IMG/VR virus record: IMGVR_UViG_3300028029_000004
Coordinates: 1-29,131 of that record
Source of the DNA: a virus
Length of the DNA stretch: 29,131 nt
Reading direction: 5' to 3' (one strand)
Part shown: positions 33 to 29,131 of the stretch, piece after piece
Numbering within the stretch: position 1 is the stretch's first letter
How the letters are laid out: each line of letters opens with the position of its first letter
The notes under the pieces: generated by a model
What the model saw: only the letters and a program-made list of their open reading frames with translations
Told to the model about the DNA's origin: nothing
Database searches by the model: none
Made by a program: the position numbers and the translations under genes

Positions 33-329
33 CTAAGGGCTTCCCACAAAGATTACGATGCTGAGCATAGGGAAGAGAAAAGAGCTTACGACAAAGCCTA
101 CAAAAAAGATCACCCCGAAAGGATCAAGGCCAGGGATGCTCTTAATAATGCTATCGCTTCAGGCAAACTCACTCGCCCAGATCATTGTGAGATATGTGGA
201 ACCCCCTGTAAGCCCCATGCTCATCATTGGCGCTATGAGCCAGAGCACCGCTTATCTGTGGTATGGTTATGCCCTCTATGCCACCGTGGTATCCACGTAG
301 CCCTGACAGAGCAGGGGGTGGTATTATGA
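1..329 (+). CDS. HNH endonuclease, C-terminal part (the 5' part of the same gene is at 28898-29131)
   Basis: Frame 3 is open from nt 3 to TGA 327-329 and has no ATG, so it is absent from the ORF track. Translation: ...KAYRSKHREELRASHKDYDAEHREEKRAYDKAYKKDHPERIKARDALNNAIASGKLTRPDHCEICGTPCKPHAHHWRYEPEHRLSVVWLCPLCHRGIH. This shows the CxxC...HH...CxxCH..IH signature of phage HNH nucleases, preceded by YxxxHREE repeats. Confidence 0.85.
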   Translation, partial: KAYRSKHREELRASHKDYDAEHREEKRAYDKAYKKDHPERIKARDALNNAIASGKLTRPDHCEICGTPCKPHAHHWRYEPEHRLSVVWLCPLCHRGIHVALTEQGVVL

Positions 330-1111
330 GTCAACCAACCAACTACTGTACCCTCGAATATACATTCTTAACCGGTGGGGAAAACCACACATTCATGACA
401 CTGACATCTGCACAGAGATATGCCTACATTTGTGCATGGAGTTATGCAACAAGTTTGCGCAAGATACATCTAAGTTACTACGAAATTGAGCATAGACTTG
501 GTGCAATTTATGATATTGACCGCAGAACTGTTGCAAAGATGTTGCAAAGATGTAGCAAAGATGCAGAACTGCTGATTGAGGAAGATGGCGGTTATACTAT
601 TGTGGGAGTAGCAGATAAACATAGTAAGTTAAAAGGGTTCAAACCCTCCAAGTCTCCGTCAGATACTGAACCCGCAGAGGATAGTATAGGATACAATAGA
701 ATAGGAGAGGATACCGAGGAGGCCAAGCCTACACCCAAGCCAACAGTTAAGGAACACAAGAAACCAAAGCTTCCATACGGTCAGAAGTTCGAACAGGCGT
801 GGCAGGATTGGGTACAGTACCGTATTGAGAAACGAAAGAAGCTTACACCCTTATCGGTTACTAGACAGCTCAAGAAGTTAAGTGAGTACAAGTCGGAACT
901 CATAGCTGTAAATGTTCTGGAGCAGAGTATCCTTAACGGCTGGATCGGATTGTTTGACCCTAAAGGCGAGTCCCCTAAACCCACCACACACTCATTCGTT
1001 TTAGATGGCCGCCCTGATCCTGACCCCGATTACACGGTGAATACCGGTATGGCTAAGGCAGAGCGAGCCAGAGAATTAATAGAGGAGGCTACCAATGGAA
1101 GCAACCAATGA
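326..1111 (+). CDS. Replication initiator / replisome organiser-like protein (N-terminal winged-helix-like region, basic linker, C-terminal DnaD-like motif)
   Basis: ATG 326 overlaps the HNH stop (ATGA) and has the GGGGGTGG SD upstream. C-terminal motif FEQAWQDWVQYRIEKRKKLTPLSVTRQLKKL...LEQSILNGWIGLF resembles phage replication-organiser C-termini as I remember them. It lies directly upstream of the helicase. Confidence 0.5.
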   Translation: MSQPTNYCTLEYTFLTGGENHTFMTLTSAQRYAYICAWSYATSLRKIHLSYYEIEHRLGAIYDIDRRTVAKMLQRCSKDAELLIEEDGGYTIVGVADKHSKLKGFKPSKSPSDTEPAEDSIGYNRIGEDTEEAKPTPKPTVKEHKKPKLPYGQKFEQAWQDWVQYRIEKRKKLTPLSVTRQLKKLSEYKSELIAVNVLEQSILNGWIGLFDPKGESPKPTTHSFVLDGRPDPDPDYTVNTGMAKAERARELIEEATNGSNQ

Positions 1112-2396
1112 GATTAGGGAACGCATTCTAGTAAGGGCCTATGCTGTGTACTTAAACGTTCCTTCTGTCCGAGACCTACTGGATACCTTACCACGTGACT
1201 ACCCTTTCCAGTCCAGGGTCTTAAACGTGCTTATAAGCGTATCGATAGACTGTATTATTCGTCGGCATACAACCCCTGAAGAAGTCATGTCTGCTTATTT
1301 GAAGGCTGGTGGTAACGAAGAGGCTTTAATCCAGATATTAACCGATGAGGGTCTCCGGTTTGAAAACATGCCTGAGCACGCCTTGCGAGATACTATCAAT
1401 CACTTCATAGGAGCGCAGATTGCCGACAGGATTGACAGCACCACCAGTGATTTTCGTCGTGGATTCATTGACAGGGACGAATATGCCTACAATCTTAAAT
1501 CTATCAGCGATGGTGGCGGGGTTGTAGGAGACATGGTTCATTCCATACAGGACATTATTTCCCGGAATGCCAACCCGCAGGATACCCATGGTATTGCTGT
1601 ACTACCCCCATGGATGAATACCAGGATGAAAGGCTTGCGTAGGGGGAGAACTACTCTACTGGCGTGTCGCCCGGGTGTTGGTAAGACTGATTTCAGTTTA
1701 GAGATAATCAGAAGGGCGCTGGCAGAGGGTTACAAAATCCTGCATATCAGCATGGAGATGGACGAGGTAGAGATACTATCCAGGATGTACAACTCTATTG
1801 GCGGAGATGCCTTCGCAGAGCTGGTAGAAAAACAGTTGTATTCTATAATTGACGAGGGCAGGGTTTCCATACCTCAGATTGCGTCTATTATTAATAGCGG
1901 TGGATACGACTTGGTGGTTATAGATTACCTGCAGATACTGGAATCTGATAAGAAATTCGGGAGTCTATACGAGAAGGTAACGCATCTAAGCAACGAACTG
2001 CGTATAGCGGCTAAGAACAGCGATGCAGCCTGGCTGGTGCTATCACAATTCAGCAGGCATGCCAGGAGTGAGCACGAGAGGCCGGTATTGGCTGACTTAA
2101 GAGACAGTGGTAGCCTTGAACAGGATGCGTTTGCCGTAATATTGGGATATGAGCCCCTAGAACGGGTTAAGTACGAAGGTGTGTATGCTCCGTCGAGGCT
2201 CGTGTCATGGTACGTTGCTAAGAACCGTGGAGGCGGTATTGGAGACTTCTCGTACAGATTTATCATGAGTAAGAGCACTTGGGAGCAGCTATCTCAAGCA
2301 GAGTATAATGCTTTCGAAGAGGAGGAATTGAAGAAGTTAGAGGACTATGCTAAAAGAAGTAAGCCGGAATATGACCGGGGGTGGATGAATGATTAG
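1095..2396 (+). CDS. dnaB: DnaB-family replicative DNA helicase
   Basis: GAGGAGG SD before ATG 1095. Walker A CRPGVGKTDF, Walker B DLVVIDYLQ, LSQFSR, and ADLRDSGSLEQDAFAVI (DnaB arginine-finger region). Confidence 0.88.
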   Translation: MEATNEIRERILVRAYAVYLNVPSVRDLLDTLPRDYPFQSRVLNVLISVSIDCIIRRHTTPEEVMSAYLKAGGNEEALIQILTDEGLRFENMPEHALRDTINHFIGAQIADRIDSTTSDFRRGFIDRDEYAYNLKSISDGGGVVGDMVHSIQDIISRNANPQDTHGIAVLPPWMNTRMKGLRRGRTTLLACRPGVGKTDFSLEIIRRALAEGYKILHISMEMDEVEILSRMYNSIGGDAFAELVEKQLYSIIDEGRVSIPQIASIINSGGYDLVVIDYLQILESDKKFGSLYEKVTHLSNELRIAAKNSDAAWLVLSQFSRHARSEHERPVLADLRDSGSLEQDAFAVILGYEPLERVKYEGVYAPSRLVSWYVAKNRGGGIGDFSYRFIMSKSTWEQLSQAEYNAFEEEELKKLEDYAKRSKPEYDRGWMND

Positions 2397-3579: not shown

Positions 3580-4188
3580 ATGGAGAGAACTTGGAAGACC
3601 TGTGGCGATTTCGGGGGGAAACGAAGGGACGGTAAGCCTTGCGGTAATAAAGCCGGTATGAAGACTAATCATAAAGGCACTGGTCGGTGTTACAGACATG
3701 GCGGATGTTCGATGGGTCGTCCTTTGGTACATGGCCGGTATGCCAAGGGTTTACGTGGCAAGTTGGCTGCAAAGATTGTCGAGCATATGAATGATCCTGA
3801 CCCTCTGGACTTGCGTTCGGAGCTGGCTGTGCTCAGAGCCAGGATTAGTTTCCTCACAGAGAAGCTTGATAAGGCCCCCGAGAAGTCTGATGAGGATGCA
3901 GATAATTCTACATCGGCTTTCAGTGCATCCGCAGAGATACTTAATGTCATTTACGGGATACAGAAGGTTATAGACACTATTAGCAAAGTGCAAGCGAGGA
4001 AAGCGCTTACAGCTCGGGAAAGTCTCTATCTTCTTACTTCTTTAGCAGATGTTATACAGACGGAGATACATTACATTAGGGGGGTGGATATCAGTGACGA
4101 AGACGCAATCAGACACATACTTAGTAAGCTCAAGAGTCGTTTTGCCCTTTCTCAACCTTTTGGAGGAGAAGCTCTTATCGAAGGTTAA
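3580..4188 (+). CDS. Terminase small subunit (putative)
   Basis: AGGAGG at 3567-3572, 7 nt before ATG 3580; the ORF-track start at 3505 has no SD. Basic Gly/Cys/His-rich N-terminus (GKPCGNKAGMKTNHKGTGRCYRHGGCSMGRP) of a kind seen in some phage small terminases. It sits immediately upstream of the large terminase and overlaps it. Confidence 0.55.
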   Translation: MERTWKTCGDFGGKRRDGKPCGNKAGMKTNHKGTGRCYRHGGCSMGRPLVHGRYAKGLRGKLAAKIVEHMNDPDPLDLRSELAVLRARISFLTEKLDKAPEKSDEDADNSTSAFSASAEILNVIYGIQKVIDTISKVQARKALTARESLYLLTSLADVIQTEIHYIRGVDISDEDAIRHILSKLKSRFALSQPFGGEALIEG

Positions 4189-5563
4189 CCCTGTAGAAGC
4201 TGGCGATGATCCTGTACAGTTTTCTATTGATGTTCTCGGGGTTACACCATGGGAAATTCCTGCTCAGGTTATGAGGTCTGTGCGTGATAACGTGTACACG
4301 ACTGTACGTGCGGGGCATAAGGTATCTAAATCTCACTTGGCGGCTAGTACGGCTATCTGGTGGGCTTTAGGGCCGCAAGATTCCAGGGTATTGCTTACGT
4401 CATATAAGGATTCATCGGTTAGGGACATTATATGGCGTGAATTAAGAAATCTAAAAGACAGGGCTTTAGTACCTCTCCCGGGAACATTAAATAAGATGCC
4501 TGCTAATGGGTGGGATCTAGGAAATGGGAGGCAGATAGTTGGGCGTGTATCTGATAAGCCGGAGGGTGTAGCCGGTATATCTTCGCCGAGGCTATTAATC
4601 ATTGTAGACGAAGCTAATGGGCTTGAGGATAATATCTTTGAAGCCCTAGAAGGTAATATGGCCGGTGGAGCCCATATGCTATTATTGGGAAACCCCACCA
4701 GAGTTACTGGACGTTTCTATGATTCTTTTCACGGACAGAAAGAAATCTGGTCACGTTTCCATATCCCGTCTACGGAATCCCCTAACGTCAAAGCTGGGAA
4801 GATAGTAATACCAGGGTTAGCTACTCAGGAATGGGTTGATGCCCGTAAGAAGGTCTTCACTCCTGCACAATTCGCTGTCAGAGTTATGGGAGAGTTCGCA
4901 GAGTCTGATATAGAAACCCTGATTAAGAGGGAATGGATAGATGCTGCTTTCGACAGGCATGACCAATGGGTACGAGACGGTAAACCCGGGGTTTTTATGT
5001 CCATAGGGGGCGACCCAGCGAGTTCCGGCGGCCCAGACTCATGTACTATGGTCACGAGATACGATGTTGGTATAGAGGCTATACATCGGTATCCGAATAA
5101 AGGACCTCTTGATCTGGCAGATGTTATTGAACAAGAATATCGTTCGAGAGGAAGCAATTCTACGGCCATTGTAGACGTACTTTCGGGCCCAGGGACTGCT
5201 GATAGTCTGAAGCGTAAGAAGGTGCCGTGTATCGCTTATAAGGGCAGCGAGAAGACAGACAGGCGTGATGCCACAGGATACTTGGAATTTGTCCGTGTGA
5301 GGGCTGCAGCATACTGGAAACTGAGAGACGGCCTGAACCCCGAGCGTGGTATCAACATGATTCTCCCCAGAAACGAAGCCCTTGTAAAGCAACTTGTATG
5401 TATAGATTTCTGGGAAAACGTAAACGGCAAGATATGTATTACAACGAAGGATGATGTCAAAGCTTTGCTTAGTGGAGAATCTCCGGATGAAGCCGATGGT
5501 GTTGTTATGGCATGGTGGGTATTACCACGTCCGAAGCATATTTCCATCAGAGATGCTTTATAA
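4094..5563 (+). CDS. Terminase large subunit
   Basis: Pre-Walker motif VTPWEIPAQV, deviant Walker A RAGHKVSKSH, Walker B LLIIVDEANG, LLLGNPT, and nuclease-domain SIGGDPASSG. The start is uncertain: GTG 4094 follows the GGGGGGTGG SD, while ATG 4049 (ORF track) has no SD. ATG 4271 is too far downstream because it would remove the conserved PWE motif. Confidence 0.85.
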   Translation: MTKTQSDTYLVSSRVVLPFLNLLEEKLLSKVNPVEAGDDPVQFSIDVLGVTPWEIPAQVMRSVRDNVYTTVRAGHKVSKSHLAASTAIWWALGPQDSRVLLTSYKDSSVRDIIWRELRNLKDRALVPLPGTLNKMPANGWDLGNGRQIVGRVSDKPEGVAGISSPRLLIIVDEANGLEDNIFEALEGNMAGGAHMLLLGNPTRVTGRFYDSFHGQKEIWSRFHIPSTESPNVKAGKIVIPGLATQEWVDARKKVFTPAQFAVRVMGEFAESDIETLIKREWIDAAFDRHDQWVRDGKPGVFMSIGGDPASSGGPDSCTMVTRYDVGIEAIHRYPNKGPLDLADVIEQEYRSRGSNSTAIVDVLSGPGTADSLKRKKVPCIAYKGSEKTDRRDATGYLEFVRVRAAAYWKLRDGLNPERGINMILPRNEALVKQLVCIDFWENVNGKICITTKDDVKALLSGESPDEADGVVMAWWVLPRPKHISIRDAL

Positions 5564-5686: not shown

Positions 5687-5727
5687 ACTGTCAAATACTT
5701 GACACTTGATTTTTTTTTGACTATGAT
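5687..5727 (+). promoter_or_regulatory. Near-consensus sigma70 promoter TTGACA(5699-5704)-N17-TATGAT(5722-5727), overlapped by the operator-like site ACTGTCAaatactTGACACT (5687-5706)
   Basis: Hexamers read directly from the sequence. The spacer contains a T9 run (5710-5718). It lies in the 268-nt gap between the terminase stop and the portal start. Confidence 0.6.
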
Positions 5728-22963: not shown

Positions 22964-23266
22964 ATGTTTAGGTGGATAAGACAGCACCCTAAACTCACGA
23001 TACTCACACTATCCTTATGCGTTCCGGCTGTGTATGGCAGCATTACGTGGATATCGGGTGTTGATAGGGTGATAGATGATTTTCCCGTAACCAGACAGGA
23101 TGTGACTGAGGTTATGGTCGATAACGCTCGGTTGGAAACAGAGGTAGATGCTTGCCAAAGCAGGATATATGACCTTGAAAAACATCAGATAGAATTGTTA
23201 CAGGCGATACCCCGAATTGATGCCAACCTGGAGTGGATCAGGCAGGCGCTGGAAGAAGGTAAATGA
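22964..23266 (+). CDS. Membrane-anchored coiled-coil protein (100 aa), possibly a lysis accessory (i-spanin- or holin-like)
   Basis: ATG lies 1 nt after the zinc-ribbon stop. N-terminal transmembrane segment LTILTLSLCVPAVYGSITWI is followed by the heptad-like stretch ARLETEVDACQSRIYDLEKHQIELLQ. The ORF-track start at 22829 runs across the SD-led zinc-ribbon ORF. Confidence 0.5.
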   Translation: MFRWIRQHPKLTILTLSLCVPAVYGSITWISGVDRVIDDFPVTRQDVTEVMVDNARLETEVDACQSRIYDLEKHQIELLQAIPRIDANLEWIRQALEEGK

Positions 23267-23421
23267 CAATGAAGGACAAGCTGGTGTGGTACCTGAAACA
23301 ACTGCTCCCGCTGAAATACTACTCTGAGTACAAGCTCAACGGTGTACCTTACACATGCCGCTGGCGCATGTGGTTCGGGCGCTGCTTTCAAATCGATGAA
23401 AGACTGGTGGTGTTCGAATGA
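23263..23421 (+). CDS. Hypothetical 52-aa protein with an LLPLKYY...WRMWFGRCF motif (not in ORF track)
   Basis: ATGA overlap with the upstream stop and a GAAGG SD. Translation MTMKDKLVWYLKQLLPLKYYSEYKLNGVPYTCRWRMWFGRCFQIDERLVVFE. Confidence 0.5.
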   Translation: MTMKDKLVWYLKQLLPLKYYSEYKLNGVPYTCRWRMWFGRCFQIDERLVVFE

Positions 23422-23585
23422 CCTGGAACATGAGAAGCAAGCGGTTTCTGATGGCGCTGATGGTGTTTGCCGTGTGGGTGGCTACCCTGATCCTGGACAA
23501 AGACCTCTTCCGCTGGCTGACTCCATACGCGCTGGGGGCAGTGGCTGCGTGGATGGGGTGGGATTCATGGAAGCCACACACATAA
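23418..23585 (+). CDS. Two-transmembrane-helix 55-aa protein, holin/pinholin candidate (not in ORF track)
   Basis: ATGA overlap. Translation MTWNMRSKRFLMALMVFAVWVATLILDKDLFRWLTPYALGAVAAWMGWDSWKPHT. Stop TAA 23583-23585. Confidence 0.5.
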   Translation: MTWNMRSKRFLMALMVFAVWVATLILDKDLFRWLTPYALGAVAAWMGWDSWKPHT

Positions 23586-23590
23586 AAAAA

Positions 23591-23607
23591 CCCTGCATGG
23601 TGCAGGG
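23591..23607. terminator. Stem-loop CCCTGCA-tgg-TGCAGGG preceded by A7. It is a canonical intrinsic terminator only when read on the minus strand.
   Basis: Perfect 7-bp stem. A-run at 23584-23590 upstream and no T-run downstream on the + strand. Confidence 0.45.
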
Positions 23608-24400: not shown

Positions 24401-24841
24401 ATGTTTGATTTAGCCGAATACAGCGAACGATTAAGTGACAAACTGTCCCCCTCTACACGATTATCTGAGCATTTCAAAGCATCTGAGCTATCGTGTGCGT
24501 GTTGCGGGAGGGTATTTATCTCTCCAGTAGTGCTAGAAATGCTTGAAAGGCTGAGAGAGAAACTTGGTTGTGCGATATTGTTGAATCCTCGCGAGGGTAT
24601 GGGTAGTGGATATCGTTGTCCTGCTCATAACAGTGATATCAGGGGGGCTACTCATTCCAGACATTGCCTCGGATTAGCAGTAGACGTTCCATTACCCACC
24701 AAATACTTGCACCTTCCCGAAGAATTCGCATTTATAGTGGAGTCTGTGGCTAGACAAGTTAGGGGAGGCTTCCACTATTACCCCGAGAACCGTTTTGCAC
24801 ACATGGATGCCTGGGCATGGCCACCGAACAGAAGGTGGTAA
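24401..24841 (+). CDS. Endolysin, zinc peptidase M15 family (Peptidase_M15_3 / DUF882-like)
   Basis: GGAGGGGG SD. Motifs HFKASELSC, GSGYRCPAHNSDIRGATHSRHCLGLAVDV and AHMD are the H/D/H zinc-ligand pattern of M15 cell-wall peptidases. Confidence 0.85.
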   Translation: MFDLAEYSERLSDKLSPSTRLSEHFKASELSCACCGRVFISPVVLEMLERLREKLGCAILLNPREGMGSGYRCPAHNSDIRGATHSRHCLGLAVDVPLPTKYLHLPEEFAFIVESVARQVRGGFHYYPENRFAHMDAWAWPPNRRW

Positions 24842-26079: not shown

Positions 26080-26130
26080 AACGCGAAAAAGATTGGAGAA
26101 CAGAATAACAGTAGACGGTGCATGGGGGTT

Positions 26131-26158
26131 TTGGGAGACTGACAAAACTTGATAGAAT
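26131..26158 (+). promoter_or_regulatory. Candidate extended -10 promoter TTGGGA-N16-TGaTAGAAT upstream of the tandem modules
   Basis: Hexamers at 26131-26136 and 26153-26158, with TG at 26150-26151. Confidence 0.35.
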
Positions 26159-26187
26159 ATTAAGTTTTCTGCTCTTACGTGTTCGTT

Positions 26188-26409
26188 TAGACAGATCCGA
26201 AAAGTTCTTAAAAGGGGGTATTTCTAATAGACCCATTCCCCCATTTCGGGGAGCGTGGGACGCAACAACTTAGGGGATTGCCACCTAGACAGATCCGAAA
26301 AGTTCTTAAAAGCGAGTATTCCAAATGTCCGTTTAACGGACTTTAGAAACTCTAACCCATTCGCCCGATTCGGCGAGCGTGAGACACAACAACTTAGAGA
26401 CCTTTTTTT
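26188..26409 (+). repeat. Two tandem composite modules (box A 27 nt + box B 42-nt hairpin). Candidate tandem structured ncRNAs or iterons. Ends in a T7 run.
   Basis: Box A TAGACAGATCCGAAAAGTTCTTAAAAG at 26188-26214 and 26286-26312 (27/27). Box B at 26232-26273 and 26356-26397 (36/42). Stem TTCCCC/GGGGAG in copy 1 versus TTCGCC/GGCGAG in copy 2 is a compensatory change. Closing helix CTCTAA/TTAGAG, then ACC and T7 at 26403-26409. Confidence 0.7.
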
Positions 26410-26424
26410 CAAATATAAATACAT

Positions 26425-26469
26425 AACCCCCAACGTGGGGGTTGACATTGGGGATAACCATGCTATGAT
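26425..26469 (+). promoter_or_regulatory. Near-consensus promoter TTGACA(26442-26447)-N16-TGcTATGAT(26464-26469), abutted by the 19-bp GC-rich inverted repeat AACCCCCAacgTGGGGGTT (26425-26443)
   Basis: Hexamers and the 8+8 inverted repeat were read directly. GGAGGTGAG SD and ATG 26494 lie downstream. Confidence 0.6.
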
Positions 26470-27343: not shown

Positions 27344-27703
27344 GTGGATCAGACATATATCAGCGGGCGCTTAGGGCGAGATGCTGAGTCAAAGGCTACT
27401 ACTGCAGGAGATATAACAAAGTTCTCGGTGGCTGTAGGATATGGCAAAAAGGACAACAGAAAGACTATGTGGTACGACGTAGTAACCTGGCACGGAACTG
27501 CCATAGCCTGCAAGGGGCTCAAGAAAGGCGACGCAGTAATAGTAGTGGGAAAACTGCGCATCAACGAATGGACAGACCGCGATGGCGTTAAAAGGCGCAC
27601 ATGGAGCCTGCAGGCAGACACGGTAGGGAAGGTGCTGTACGTAAAAGAGAGTAAATCGCAGGAAGAGAGCAGAGAATCAACTAATGATGACCCAGCATAC
27701 TGA
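27344..27703 (+). CDS. ssb: Single-stranded DNA-binding protein
   Basis: GGGAGGG SD before GTG 27344. OB-fold pattern ISGRLGRDAE....FSVAV.......TMWYDVVTWHGTAIACKGLKKGDAVIVVGKLRINEWTDRDGVKRRTWSLQADTV, with an acidic C-terminal tail. Confidence 0.8.
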   Translation: MDQTYISGRLGRDAESKATTAGDITKFSVAVGYGKKDNRKTMWYDVVTWHGTAIACKGLKKGDAVIVVGKLRINEWTDRDGVKRRTWSLQADTVGKVLYVKESKSQEESRESTNDDPAY

Positions 27704-27716
27704 AAGGATGGGTAAA

Positions 27717-28076
27717 ATGAACAGAGCAAGATTGGTGACTGTAACGCTAGGATTATTTCTCTTAGTAATGGCTTGTAATGGGAATGATGTTATGGGCCCG
27801 GATACAACTTCGACAGTGACATATAAAGTTGTAAGTGACGCAGATTCGGTACGGGTGGAATATCTGGATGCGGATTGTATGTATATTGTTGACGTATTAT
27901 CCTCTCCTTGGGAAATATCTATTCAGAAAAAGATTGGTACGCTTGCATATTTAGCGGCGTATAATCTGAGTGAGACCGGGAGTCTTACGATTATGATCAC
28001 TATTGATGGACACGATTACCGCCGGCATACCGAAGCTCCTTGGGGATGGCTTGAGTATATGCTAGTGGTGGAATGA
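27717..28076 (+). CDS. Lipoprotein (119 aa), paralogue of 2699-3064, MmpS-like beta-sandwich pattern
   Basis: AAAGGA SD 9 nt before ATG 27717. Signal peptide MNRARLVTVTLGLFLLVMAC with lipobox V-M-A-C. The mature part (TVTYKVVSDADSVRVEYLD.....SPWEISI.....GSLTIMITIDGHDY) resembles MmpS-type proteins. Confidence 0.7.
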   Translation: MNRARLVTVTLGLFLLVMACNGNDVMGPDTTSTVTYKVVSDADSVRVEYLDADCMYIVDVLSSPWEISIQKKIGTLAYLAAYNLSETGSLTIMITIDGHDYRRHTEAPWGWLEYMLVVE

Positions 28077-28080
28077 AAGG

Positions 28081-28578
28081 ATGGATAAAATGGACCATAC
28101 GAGACCGGACATAAAGCAGATGAGGAAAGAGATCAACGATAATTTGCGGAAGCTTGAGGTATTGAACGGTAAAAGCCCGGGTACGTATTCACTGCCGGAT
28201 TCCGCACCGCATATAGTAGAGTACGGCGACGCAGTTCACTTTCATTCAGCGAATATCTCTGGGATCCTATTCGATATGCTAGGGCAAGAAGGGGGTGTAT
28301 ACGTTGCTAACGAGTCAGTTGTGCTGAAGAAGGGTAAAGACACCTGGTTGCACCTAAAAGGGAAGGCATTGACCTCCTGTAGCCTTGGAGACATCTCTGC
28401 TGATGGCATAGGACACCTCGTAAAGAAGGAAGTTCAGGATTTCAAGATTGATGAGCTGTCTGTAGGAGTGTCCATCCAGCAGCTTGTACCGCTTTTCACG
28501 CAGGCCCTGAGGGTGTTGGAAGGTGTGTCTGACCTGATCACAGACTATGAAGTTGTGCTGGACAAAAACCAAACTTGA
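28081..28578 (+). CDS. Hypothetical protein (165 aa)
   Basis: ORF follows the lipoprotein gene. ATG 28090 is an alternative start with better SD spacing. Confidence 0.5.
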   Translation: MDKMDHTRPDIKQMRKEINDNLRKLEVLNGKSPGTYSLPDSAPHIVEYGDAVHFHSANISGILFDMLGQEGGVYVANESVVLKKGKDTWLHLKGKALTSCSLGDISADGIGHLVKKEVQDFKIDELSVGVSIQQLVPLFTQALRVLEGVSDLITDYEVVLDKNQT

Positions 28579-28602
28579 CAGAGGGATTAAACCGACTATA
28601 AT
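28575..28602 (+). promoter_or_regulatory. Consensus sigma70 promoter TTGACA(28575-28580)-N16-TATAAT(28597-28602)
   Basis: Both hexamers match the consensus perfectly. The -35 overlaps the stop codon of the upstream gene. Predicted start near A28609. Confidence 0.65.
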
Positions 28603-28606
28603 TGTT

Positions 28607-28719
28607 TTAACAAAACAGGGAGAATACAGTGAATTTTAATAATCCGCCTTTTGGAAGAGTGACTTTGATGCAAACCGCATCGTCTCCCTGTTTGTTAACC
28701 AAGAGGCGGGTTTTTATTT
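28607..28719 (+). promoter_or_regulatory. Structured ~110-nt leader or small RNA with two long competing helices and a terminal U-tract
   Basis: Helix A: 28607-28623 with 28683-28698 (16 bp, one bulge). Helix B: 28644-28654 with 28699-28709 (11 bp including one G-U), followed by G+TTTTTATTT at 28710-28719. The order A-B-A'-B' with no linker between A' and B' makes the two full helices mutually exclusive. Confidence 0.55.
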
Positions 28720-28926
28720 ATGAAAGCAGGAATCATGACCAAGCAAGAGGCTGATAGGATTACCAACCGACAGATCGCTCAGTTACTTGATTCAATCGAG
28801 GACGTGTTCACGTTACCCGATATTGTTAAACAGCAAATTATCAAGTATATGCATTATCTGAAGGCTAATCTTATCGTAAATCAGGAAGGACTTACCAATG
28901 GAGAACATCACCAAGATTTGCGGTAA
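28720..28926 (+). CDS. Hypothetical protein (68 aa; 63 aa if started at ATG 28735)
   Basis: First ORF after the structured leader. ATG 28735 has the better SD (AGCAGGA). Its 3' end overlaps the HNH start by 29 nt. Confidence 0.5.
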   Translation: MKAGIMTKQEADRITNRQIAQLLDSIEDVFTLPDIVKQQIIKYMHYLKANLIVNQEGLTNGEHHQDLR

Positions 28927-29131
28927 ATGCGGAGTACTGAAGCCTGTTACCGAGTTTCACAAGAACAAAAGCACGACTGATGGGCTACATCATCAGTGTA
29001 AAACATGTAGGACTGAATATTATGCTGAGCATCGGGAGGAGATAATTGCTCGTAAAAGGGCTTATCGTTTCGAGCATAGGGAAGAGATACGAGCCCGCAA
29101 CAAAGCTTATCGCTCCAAACATAGGGAAGAG
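28898..29131 (+). CDS. HNH endonuclease, N-terminal part (continues at nt 1-329 through the terminal overlap)
   Basis: ATG 28898 with the frame open to the window end, so there is no stop and it is absent from the ORF track. Translation MENITKICGKCGVLKPVTEFHKNKSTTDGLHHQCKTCRTEYYAEHREEIIARKRAYRFEHREEIRARNKAYRSKHREE has an N-terminal CxxC...CxxC zinc finger followed by 15-aa YxxxHREE repeats. Confidence 0.8.
   Translation, partial: MENITKICGKCGVLKPVTEFHKNKSTTDGLHHQCKTCRTEYYAEHREEIIARKRAYRFEHREEIRARNKAYRSKHREE
29100..29131. repeat. Second copy of the terminal overlap (equals nt 1-32)
   Basis: 32/32 identity with the window start. Confidence 0.8.

Follow-up and report, generated by a model that had tools for sequence, protein, structure and literature searches.

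A predicted leaky terminator with interleaved helices between the early and replication genes of an uncultivated phage

What controls the passage of transcription from the early genes of a small phage into its replication genes is the question raised by a short non-coding stretch of the IMG/VR virus record IMGVR_UViG_3300028029_000004. The whole record, 29,131 nucleotides (nt) long and here called the window, was analysed. The element in question (28575-28719) sits between an early block, with SSB and orphan open reading frames (ORFs), and the replication module. An earlier note, made by a model from the sequence alone, had described here a perfect promoter, a leader of about 110 nt with two long helices, and a U-tract, and proposed a cis-acting switch or a discrete small RNA (sRNA). 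Our reading, to which we give a probability of roughly 45%, is that the element is a conditional or leaky promoter-proximal terminator cassette at the early/replication junction that also yields an RNA of about 105 nt. The attenuator and the sRNA would then be two outcomes of one promoter-terminator pair. The features are collected in Table 1.

TTGACA-16-TATAAT is the sole 12/12 promoter match that a genome-wide scan finds in the window, and by our own arithmetic about 0.01 such sites would be expected by chance in 2 x 29 kb. Hexamers and spacer are exactly as the earlier note gave them, and in relatives the gene orthologous to the one that follows mostly has a sigma-70 promoter upstream. The next good promoter downstream of 28575-28602 does not come before 5699, and neither reading of the sequence nor the promoter scan places one between the U-tract and the small gene that opens the replication module. 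The only candidate for a second promoter between terminator and gene, TTGTTA-17-TATTTA, lacks the -7 T and leaves no room for a ribosome binding site (RBS), and was rejected. Since no other good promoter follows, substantial read-through of the leader would be needed at some stage.

To rank possible terminators, each of the 17 U-tracts on the + strand (at least 7 T in 9) was taken in turn and the 90 nt before it were folded. Helix B of the leader together with its U-tract ranks first of the 17, at -26.8 kcal/mol, and the other sites are diffuse intragenic structures. The - strand has 46 U-tracts and the + (coding) strand only these 17, which is consistent with avoidance of terminators in the sense direction. 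An intrinsic terminator is expected to have a GC-rich stem 0-2 nt from a U-tract of 7-9 nt, and this site does: the stem has 12-14 bp with 7 GC pairs, its contiguous base is 12 bp, and the gap to the U-tract is 0 nt. The insert of 44 nt between the arms folds as an irregular upper stem plus a hairpin of 5-6 bp. The earlier suggestion that helix B and the U-tract resemble a terminator is borne out to the extent that this is the best such site on the coding strand, and it is predicted to be the sole credible intrinsic terminator there.

Both helices are present as first described. Helix B has a core of 11 bp including one G-U, was found to extend to 14 bp (28641-28654/28699-28712) with 7 GC pairs, and is followed directly by TTTTTATTT (28711-28719). 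Helix A has a core of 11 nt that is 100% complementary (28613-28623/28683-28693) and, with one bulged A, reaches 14-15 bp over 28609-28623/28683-28698 (RNAduplex, -18.7 kcal/mol). The 3' arms A' and B' adjoin with zero spacer, again as noted, so that A'B' is one continuous strand of 27 nt. A pair of helices, 11 bp or longer and with no more than one G-U, turned up in 0 of 5000 dinucleotide shuffles; a single helix of such length was seen in 15% of shuffles. The minimum free energy (MFE) of the leader has a z-score of -2.6, with equally good folding in 3 of 200 shuffles. Across the whole genome there are 14 helices of at least 11 bp with at most one G-U, among which A alone lacks a G-U and B alone is followed by a T-rich tail. 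Two direct repeats in the leader, AGTGA..TTT..AT, to which the note had also drawn attention, are indeed there, but they are short, imperfect and absent as a family from a repeat search, and are probably due to chance.

For the RNA that would exist when termination occurs (28609-28710), calculation gives -26.2 kcal/mol for the helix A fold and -27.3 kcal/mol for the helix B fold, with a refolding barrier of about 24 kcal/mol. Helix A is the MFE structure for transcripts ending at 28698 and 28709, and B wins only once the U-tract can pair; at equilibrium the probability of A is 0.84 at 28710 and 0.97 for read-through RNA arriving from upstream. The long helix B hairpin has a weak upper part, of which A' forms the 3' half, and there the two folds do use the same nucleotides. 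Two competing folds thus exist much as proposed, near-isoenergetic and with helix A forming first during transcription. In the nested-structure model read-through is the kinetic default, because helix A is close in energy to B, forms first and is held by a high barrier. The stronger claim, that the helices are mutually exclusive, is an assumption: the nested folds are nearly equal, and no nucleotide is common to the core arms of A and B.

The mechanism we propose would begin with host sigma-70 RNA polymerase starting from the 28575-28602 promoter at about 28609. After about 100 nt the nascent RNA would close a long irregular hairpin whose GC-rich base of 12-14 bp (helix B) abuts U8/9, and this hairpin would act as an intrinsic terminator with an unusually large structured insert. 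Polymerases stopping at 28712-28720 would release an RNA of about 105-110 nt, and those reading through would transcribe the gene of 63 amino acids (aa), HNH, the O-like initiator and DnaB, and probably further genes after these. The operon context given in the earlier note holds, since downstream lie the small gene, HNH, the O-like initiator and DnaB, then the terminase and structural genes. Transcripts coming from the early promoter at 26442 would meet the terminator as well. The first 15 nt (helix A) would pair just 5' of the terminator 3' arm and so remove the upper half of the terminator hairpin. Helix A is the obvious built-in competitor of the terminator, though which way it acts, and any trigger, we only infer. 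On the nested model helix A would form first and be kinetically trapped, giving a bistable attenuator with read-through as default, in which termination would need an occupant of the 5' arm. The scheme supposes a transcription start and actual termination at the predicted places, helices that compete rather than coexist, and some regulator.

Several points weigh against this mechanism. Standard terminator scans do not call the site; 44 nt separate the arms compared with the 3-8-nt loop of standard models, and it is because of this long "loop" that a consensus scan misses it. A rough pseudoknot estimate with both helices formed lies at -35 to -41 kcal/mol, below either nested fold, and linkers of 19 nt and at least 12 nt make a coaxial pseudoknot geometrically possible. 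The steric exclusion of a pseudoknot asserted in the earlier note is consequently not established, the linkers being long enough and the crude energy lower. In a pseudoknot containing both helices, helix A would be no antiterminator and could instead staple the terminator together; were helix A always to win, the terminator would never act. Another pair of long helices within 115 nt lies at 24600, and against the genome background of 14 long helices, two within 115 nt are only mildly improbable. No sensor, ligand, protein or sRNA regulator was identified, with no match in Rfam at E<=10 for one. The element is also dispensable for the module, as relatives manage with a leader of 23-30 nt or none. 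Finally, no homologue of the leader was found in Rfam or in phage, plasmid, E. coli, genome, viral and metagenome collections, so that neither helix has covariation support.

Table 1. Features of the promoter-leader element and of the surrounding genome (positions in the window)
Feature	Position	Strand	Remarks
Orphan ORF, 165 aa	28081-28578	+	Last gene of early block; TGA stop inside -35 hexamer
-35 hexamer TTGACA	28575-28580	+	12/12 site
-10 hexamer TATAAT	28597-28602	+	16-nt spacer; 12/12 site
Predicted transcription start (A)	28609-28610	+	7-8 nt past -10; placed by sequence geometry
Helix A 5' arm (AACAAAACAGGGAGA)	28609-28623	+	Extreme 5' end of predicted RNA; holds GGGAG resembling a Shine-Dalgarno (SD) sequence
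Speculative 41-codon leader ORF	28629-28754	+	GUG 6 nt past GGGAG; codons CCG CCU (Pro-Pro) coincide with the helix B 5' arm
Helix B 5' arm (AAUCCGCCUUUUGG)	28641-28654	+	Core 28644-28654
Small internal hairpin GAUGC-AAACC-GCAUC plus U-G pair	28666-28682	+	-6.3 kcal/mol; in both alternative folds
Helix A 3' arm (UCUCCCUGUUUGUUAA)	28683-28698	+	In helix B fold pairs weakly with 28655-28662, upper part of long hairpin
Helix B 3' arm (CCAAGAGGCGGGUU)	28699-28712	+	Core 28699-28709
U-tract UUUUUAUUU	28711-28719	+	Predicted termination zone; U8/9
RBS region GAAAGCAGGAAUC	28722-28734	+	Conserved; SD AGGA 28728-28731; homology to relatives starts here
63-aa gene, start ATG 28735	28735-28926	+	Conserved; first gene of replication module; predicted helical hairpin
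63/68-aa small gene, then HNH	Start of replication module (order of genes)	+	
O-like initiator	263-1111	+	
DnaB	1095-2396	+	
Terminase large subunit	4049-5563	+	Next portal, scaffold, major head protein, tail genes
Endolysin	24401-24841	+	Small ORFs after
Repeat-rich non-coding stretch	26110-26440		Near-consensus promoter at 26442 (26442-26469)
Early ORFs: HTH_39 protein, SSB, two orphans of 130 aa and 165 aa	SSB 27344-27703	+	

An ATG at 28720 does stand directly after the U-tract, as the note had it, but the RBS GAAAGCAGGAA and conserved ATG of the relatives correspond to the window ATG 28735, 15 nt further on, and the next gene probably does not start at 28720. Sequestration of the SD sequence by helix B was considered and rejected, the conserved RBS being downstream of the U-tract. 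The conserved segment is protein-coding to judge from its variable alignment columns, which are concentrated by codon position (19/14/38). The AlphaFold2 (AF2) model of the 63-aa protein is a two-helix hairpin (predicted local distance difference test score, pLDDT, 74.8) with no meaningful fold match in the PDB. In the contigs that carry it (L006-L015 and L104-L108) the small gene always opens a replication module, which has an O-like or DnaD-like protein plus an IstB/DnaC-like or DnaB-like protein. Its nucleotide identity is 74-91% among contigs with otherwise unrelated flanks, the mosaic boundaries are sharp, and upstream neighbours in the relatives include DNA methylases and large ORFs.

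The small gene has ten relatives, whose contigs were recovered and compared. At the nucleotide level the window is homologous to ten related loci (L006-L015), which comprise seven distinct sequences since three pairs are near-identical contigs; this homology begins at 28719-28726, directly past the U-tract, and ends near 28890, again at 74-91% identity. In six relatives (L006, L007, L008, L012, L014 and L015) a sigma-70 promoter matches 9-12 of 12 positions, and 23-30 nt separate the end of its -10 from the orthologous ATG. Promoters lie at 65 nt in L106 and at 45 nt in L107, L104 has only a weak 8/12 site at 23 nt, and in L010 no clear promoter site is seen. The closest relative, L014, carries TTGACA-16-TATAAT followed by a leader of 27 nt; the distance from promoter to conserved ATG in the window is 132 nt. 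Because relatives carry sigma-70 promoters at the equivalent position, the promoter itself is a conserved feature of the early/replication module boundary. L006 shows the canonical order of gene, hairpin, promoter and gene. Its positions 145-215 hold a GC-rich hairpin of 13 bp with a structured insert of about 37 nt, then UGUUU, then the promoter, and long-insert hairpins thus seem to recur at this module boundary, in L006 as terminator-then-promoter.

The leader of about 110 nt is absent from every related contig. One of these, L111, has the same gene order as the window (HTH_39, SSB, a 159-aa homologue of the 165-aa orphan, the small gene, a replication protein), and in it the homologues of the two flanking genes overlap, with nothing between them and no control region. 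Given relatives that have no leader and flanking genes that overlap in L111, the promoter-leader-terminator unit looks like a lineage-specific, moron-like insertion. Conservation of the helices in related phages, which the earlier note had made a condition of its reading, fails insofar as the related contigs lack the whole leader.

A moron is defined as a module that is autonomous because it brings both a promoter and a terminator of its own (Juhala et al. 2000, cited in PMC10914365). So far as that cited definition goes, the unit resembles phage morons in having its own promoter and terminator and in being inserted between genes that are adjacent in a related phage. It differs from morons, which carry a protein gene, in that it comprises only an RNA of about 105 nt, its lone ORF (28629-28754) running through the terminator, and in that it stands in the path of essential downstream transcription. 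It might be a stand-alone sRNA moron, that is a promoter, an RNA of about 105 nt and a terminator inserted between genes, with a product acting in trans and downstream genes served only by leak-through. The adjacent and overlapping genes in L111 fit this, and so does the predicted RNA, whose MFE fold after termination leaves 28-35 nt at the 5' end single-stranded. It has the usual layout of an sRNA, in which an unpaired, A/U-rich 5' stretch precedes a long terminator hairpin that ends in a U tail. Short RNAs derived from phage 5' untranslated regions (5'-UTRs) are common as well (PMC10914365). Essential replication genes with no other promoter lie downstream, however, and would require substantial read-through, no significant complementary target was found in the phage genome, and the RNA is conserved nowhere. 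We therefore regard this explanation as unlikely.

The searches for the leader were wide. Rfam at gathering thresholds gave 0 matches for the whole window, and at E<=10 over 28000-29131 the best scores were 11-16 bits (E 5.7-7.4), to irrelevant families; the statement in the note that no riboswitch class is recognisable extends to every Rfam family. The region had no blastn match in collections of phages, plasmids and E. coli, and exact and gapped leader patterns gave none in four viral-contig scans. The same patterns matched 61 times in genome contigs, all unrelated perfect palindromes (Polyangiaceae, Ktedonobacteraceae and others), and 27 times in metagenome contigs, mostly one unrelated GC-rich repeat. 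Local alignment of the leader with the upstream regions of the relatives did not exceed shuffles, a search with the HNH protein found only distant, non-syntenic loci, and the 68-aa protein and its alignment found nothing in IMG/VR. Neither a trans-target nor a second copy of the leader was found in the genome beyond chance. The independent assemblies of the same phage, L109 and L110, are 100% identical, and so offer no natural variation to exploit. Incidental to these scans, multi-copy near-perfect palindromes of the form AACAGGGAGACCGCAAGGGTCTCCCCTACA... were seen in metagenome-assembled genomes of Ktedonobacteraceae (L040, L041, L044, L047, L053, L055, L058, L065) and a family with a CAGGGAGAGGGCGGGGGAGAGGGTA... 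element in one soil metagenome (L077-L101, Ga0081539); both are unrelated to the leader.

An orphan leader of this kind might also be a passenger with no regulatory role, a remnant either of an inserted imperfect palindrome or element resembling a miniature inverted-repeat transposable element (MITE), or of illegitimate recombination at a mosaic junction. The promoter would be real and the leader at most a weak constitutive terminator or a stabilising 5' hairpin. Its absence from all relatives, the sharp homology boundaries, the z-score of only -2.6 and the long helices elsewhere in the genome speak for this, and the ends TTAA-CAAAACAGGGAGA ... TCTCCCTGTTTG-TTAA (28607-28698, 12-15 bp) resemble inverted termini with a TTAA duplication. 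Yet helix B crosses the boundary of such an element, its 3' arm lying outside the TTAA, and a chance match of 11-14 bp abutting both the element and a U-tract is unlikely, the more so as U-tracts are otherwise avoided on the coding strand. The element is also single-copy in the genome, and the viral, genome and metagenome scans gave unrelated palindromes, though the host itself may bear such a family. A passenger origin is on this evidence rather unlikely.

The gene just upstream invites comparison with the lambdoid Q cassette, in which the Q gene is followed by PR', a sigma-dependent pause element (SDPE), tR' and the late genes (PMC9388147). In both, a gene is followed by a strong constitutive promoter, a short terminated leader RNA (here a predicted one), a terminator and a long downstream operon. 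In a protein antitermination checkpoint of this type the terminator would be efficient, an early protein, for example the 165-aa orphan, would modify RNA polymerase at or close to the promoter and so make it read through, and helix A would be incidental. The topology would be that of Q (PMC9388147), with gene, promoter, a putative promoter-proximal element, terminator and downstream genes. The upstream ORF ends within the -35 hexamer, the -10-like GAGAAT (+12) and TACAGT (+17) could serve as SDPEs, and the terminator is the only credible one on the coding strand of a one-strand genome. The protein itself argues otherwise. It has no match in Pfam, PHROG, NCBIfam or by sequence in the PDB, and none to the three Q families (PF06530, PF03589, PF06323). 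It is a singleton in a word-indexed protein database, and exhaustive HMMER searching yields one remote homologue, P0013 (39% identity), encoded in L111, where its gene overlaps the following one and neither a promoter nor a terminator comes after it. Its AF2 single-sequence model (pLDDT 38.6) is too poor for fold comparison. In the leader neither a Q-binding element (QBE) nor an SDPE can be defined. Hexamers resembling a -10 are expected by chance in an AT-rich sequence (about 0.4 per 25 nt, own arithmetic), and the genes that come first downstream are replication genes and not a late operon. A checkpoint of the Q type is therefore improbable.

The inverted repeats might instead act as DNA, as operator half-sites for a phage regulator or as part of a replication origin near the initiator gene, for they begin at +1 of a strong promoter beside the replication module. 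Arms 59 and 44 bp apart and interleaved are atypical for operators, though, and no further copies of the arms occur in the genome beyond chance. A G-U pair that is strand-specific, in the core of helix B, suggests RNA, as does the U-tract next to it; the relatives have no such repeats, and the repeat region at 26110-26440 is a better candidate for an origin or regulatory region. A role at the level of DNA is thus very improbable.

Two further ideas concern the RNA. The P4 CI and P1 c4 RNAs are leader-derived antisense RNAs, from transcripts that have an RNA segment with complementary targets, pairing of which leads to premature termination or a translational block. The leader could conceivably be an RNA switch of a new type, in which the 5' helix closes a domain of about 60 nt in the manner of a riboswitch P1, the order being A, B, A', B', and entry into the replication and late genes would be set by a ligand or protein stabilising one topology, or by negative feedback like that of P4 CI, in which the terminated RNA of about 105 nt would pair in trans with the 5' arm of leaders still being made. 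We hold such a switch to be quite improbable. Compared with P4 CI and P1 c4 the leader has no sequence similarity and gives no evidence of processing, and action in trans is conjectural. The speculative leader ORF offers a second idea, for which there is no support beyond the sequence; in this possible model read-through would be expected at all ribosome positions. A boxA/boxB (nut) reading was rejected on our own inspection of the sequence, the loop AAACC not being GNRA-like and the order being wrong.

Returning to the terminator cassette, the closest known kind is the premature terminator in phage 5'-UTRs. Such terminators, which yield abundant short RNAs, are common in phage transcriptomes (PMC10914365); in Pseudomonas phages 42 5'-UTR terminators and 29 non-coding RNA candidates are described, and in phiKZ T102 comes with an RNA of about 71 nt and TU237 with one of 141 nt (PMC10914365). 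The likeness lies in a terminator about 70-140 nt past a promoter and before the first gene, with a short RNA and read-through as products. Those terminators are mapped from transcripts, whereas the leader here is a prediction without sequence relationship to them, and it differs further in its structured insert of 44 nt and its interleaved 5'-terminal helix. The element is best described as an unrelated orphan instance of this known kind, with an unusual interleaved layout and belonging to no described RNA family.

Classical attenuators, such as those of trp type or the expression platforms of riboswitches, likewise have near-isoenergetic folds, one of them a terminator, and an earlier helix that sequesters part of the terminator hairpin. 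Here, in contrast, the core arms are interleaved (A, B, A', B') and share no nucleotides, and no anti-antiterminator, aptamer, leader-peptide control codons or ligand could be identified, nor any Rfam match. The earlier note had also suggested a likeness to the HK022 put RNA, which consists of two tandem stem-loops of about 70 nt, is V-shaped, has a triplex in stem I and contains no terminator (PMC9378689). Both would be cis-acting RNAs directly past an early promoter that affect terminator read-through, in our case as a prediction. The comparison fails on architecture, since put is built of two tandem stem-loops (PMC9378689), whereas the leader is predicted to fold through a 5'-3' helix of long range or into one long hairpin with a terminator, and no tandem long stem-loops are seen. 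The proposed cis-acting switch is thus partly supported, by the promoter, the operon context, the two folds and the terminator-like helix B; the resemblance to put and conservation have fallen away, and the steric argument is not established.

If our reading is correct, one cassette of about 145 bp would set how much of the transcription that starts at a consensus promoter, or arrives from the early genes, goes on into the replication genes and probably through the rest of the 29-kb genome. It would be a compact and tractable checkpoint of the 5'-UTR terminator class, which is often seen in transcriptomes and the control of which is rarely understood. Its value is limited by its being an orphan in one uncultivated phage, with no homologues and relatives that do without it. 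A sturdier by-product concerns the small helical-hairpin protein with which the replication module opens in a family of mosaic phage contigs: its promoter, RBS and start are conserved.

The window is the whole contig. It represents a phage genome of about 29.1 kb that is complete and either circular or circularly permuted, because its first 32 nt are identical to its last 32 nt (1-32 and 29100-29131), joining the ends restores an HNH endonuclease ORF of 176 aa otherwise split across them, and L109, an independent ENA assembly of 24.5 kb that is 100% identical to the window, spans the junction uninterrupted. The restored HNH protein contains repeated EHREE motifs. The GC content is 44.8%, all annotated genes are on the + strand, and ARAGORN finds no tRNA or tmRNA.

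The non-coding stretch at 26110-26440 contains two families of direct repeats, one at 26188-26228/26286-26326 (41 nt, 90%) and one at 26231-26273/26355-26397 (43 nt, 86%). The second family includes a hairpin, TCCCC-CATTTC-GGGGA in one copy; the other copy has TCGCC-CGATTC-GGCGA, in which a C:G pair has become G:C by compensatory change. A promoter-like site lies upstream (26131-26158) and a T7 run downstream (26404-26410), and the repeats could be tandem sRNAs, an origin or a regulatory region.

A helix of 14 bp with 7 GC pairs (TGGAGGGGGATAGT / ACTGTCCCCCTCTA; 24387-24400/24442-24455) straddles the endolysin start codon at 24401 and includes an SD-like GGAGG, so that by its position it may mask translation initiation. 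The cleanest canonical terminator of the genome, CCCTGCACCATGCAGGG followed by TTTTTTT, is found on the - strand at 23591-23607 despite the placement of all annotated genes on the + strand, and minus-strand ORFs of 68-81 aa occur at 23185-23581. A third near-consensus promoter, TTGACA-17-TATGAT (5699-5727), whose spacer contains a run of T9, lies so close to the ATG called for the portal gene (5736) that only 8 nt intervene, a position that suggests either a leaderless start or a miscalled start of the portal ORF.

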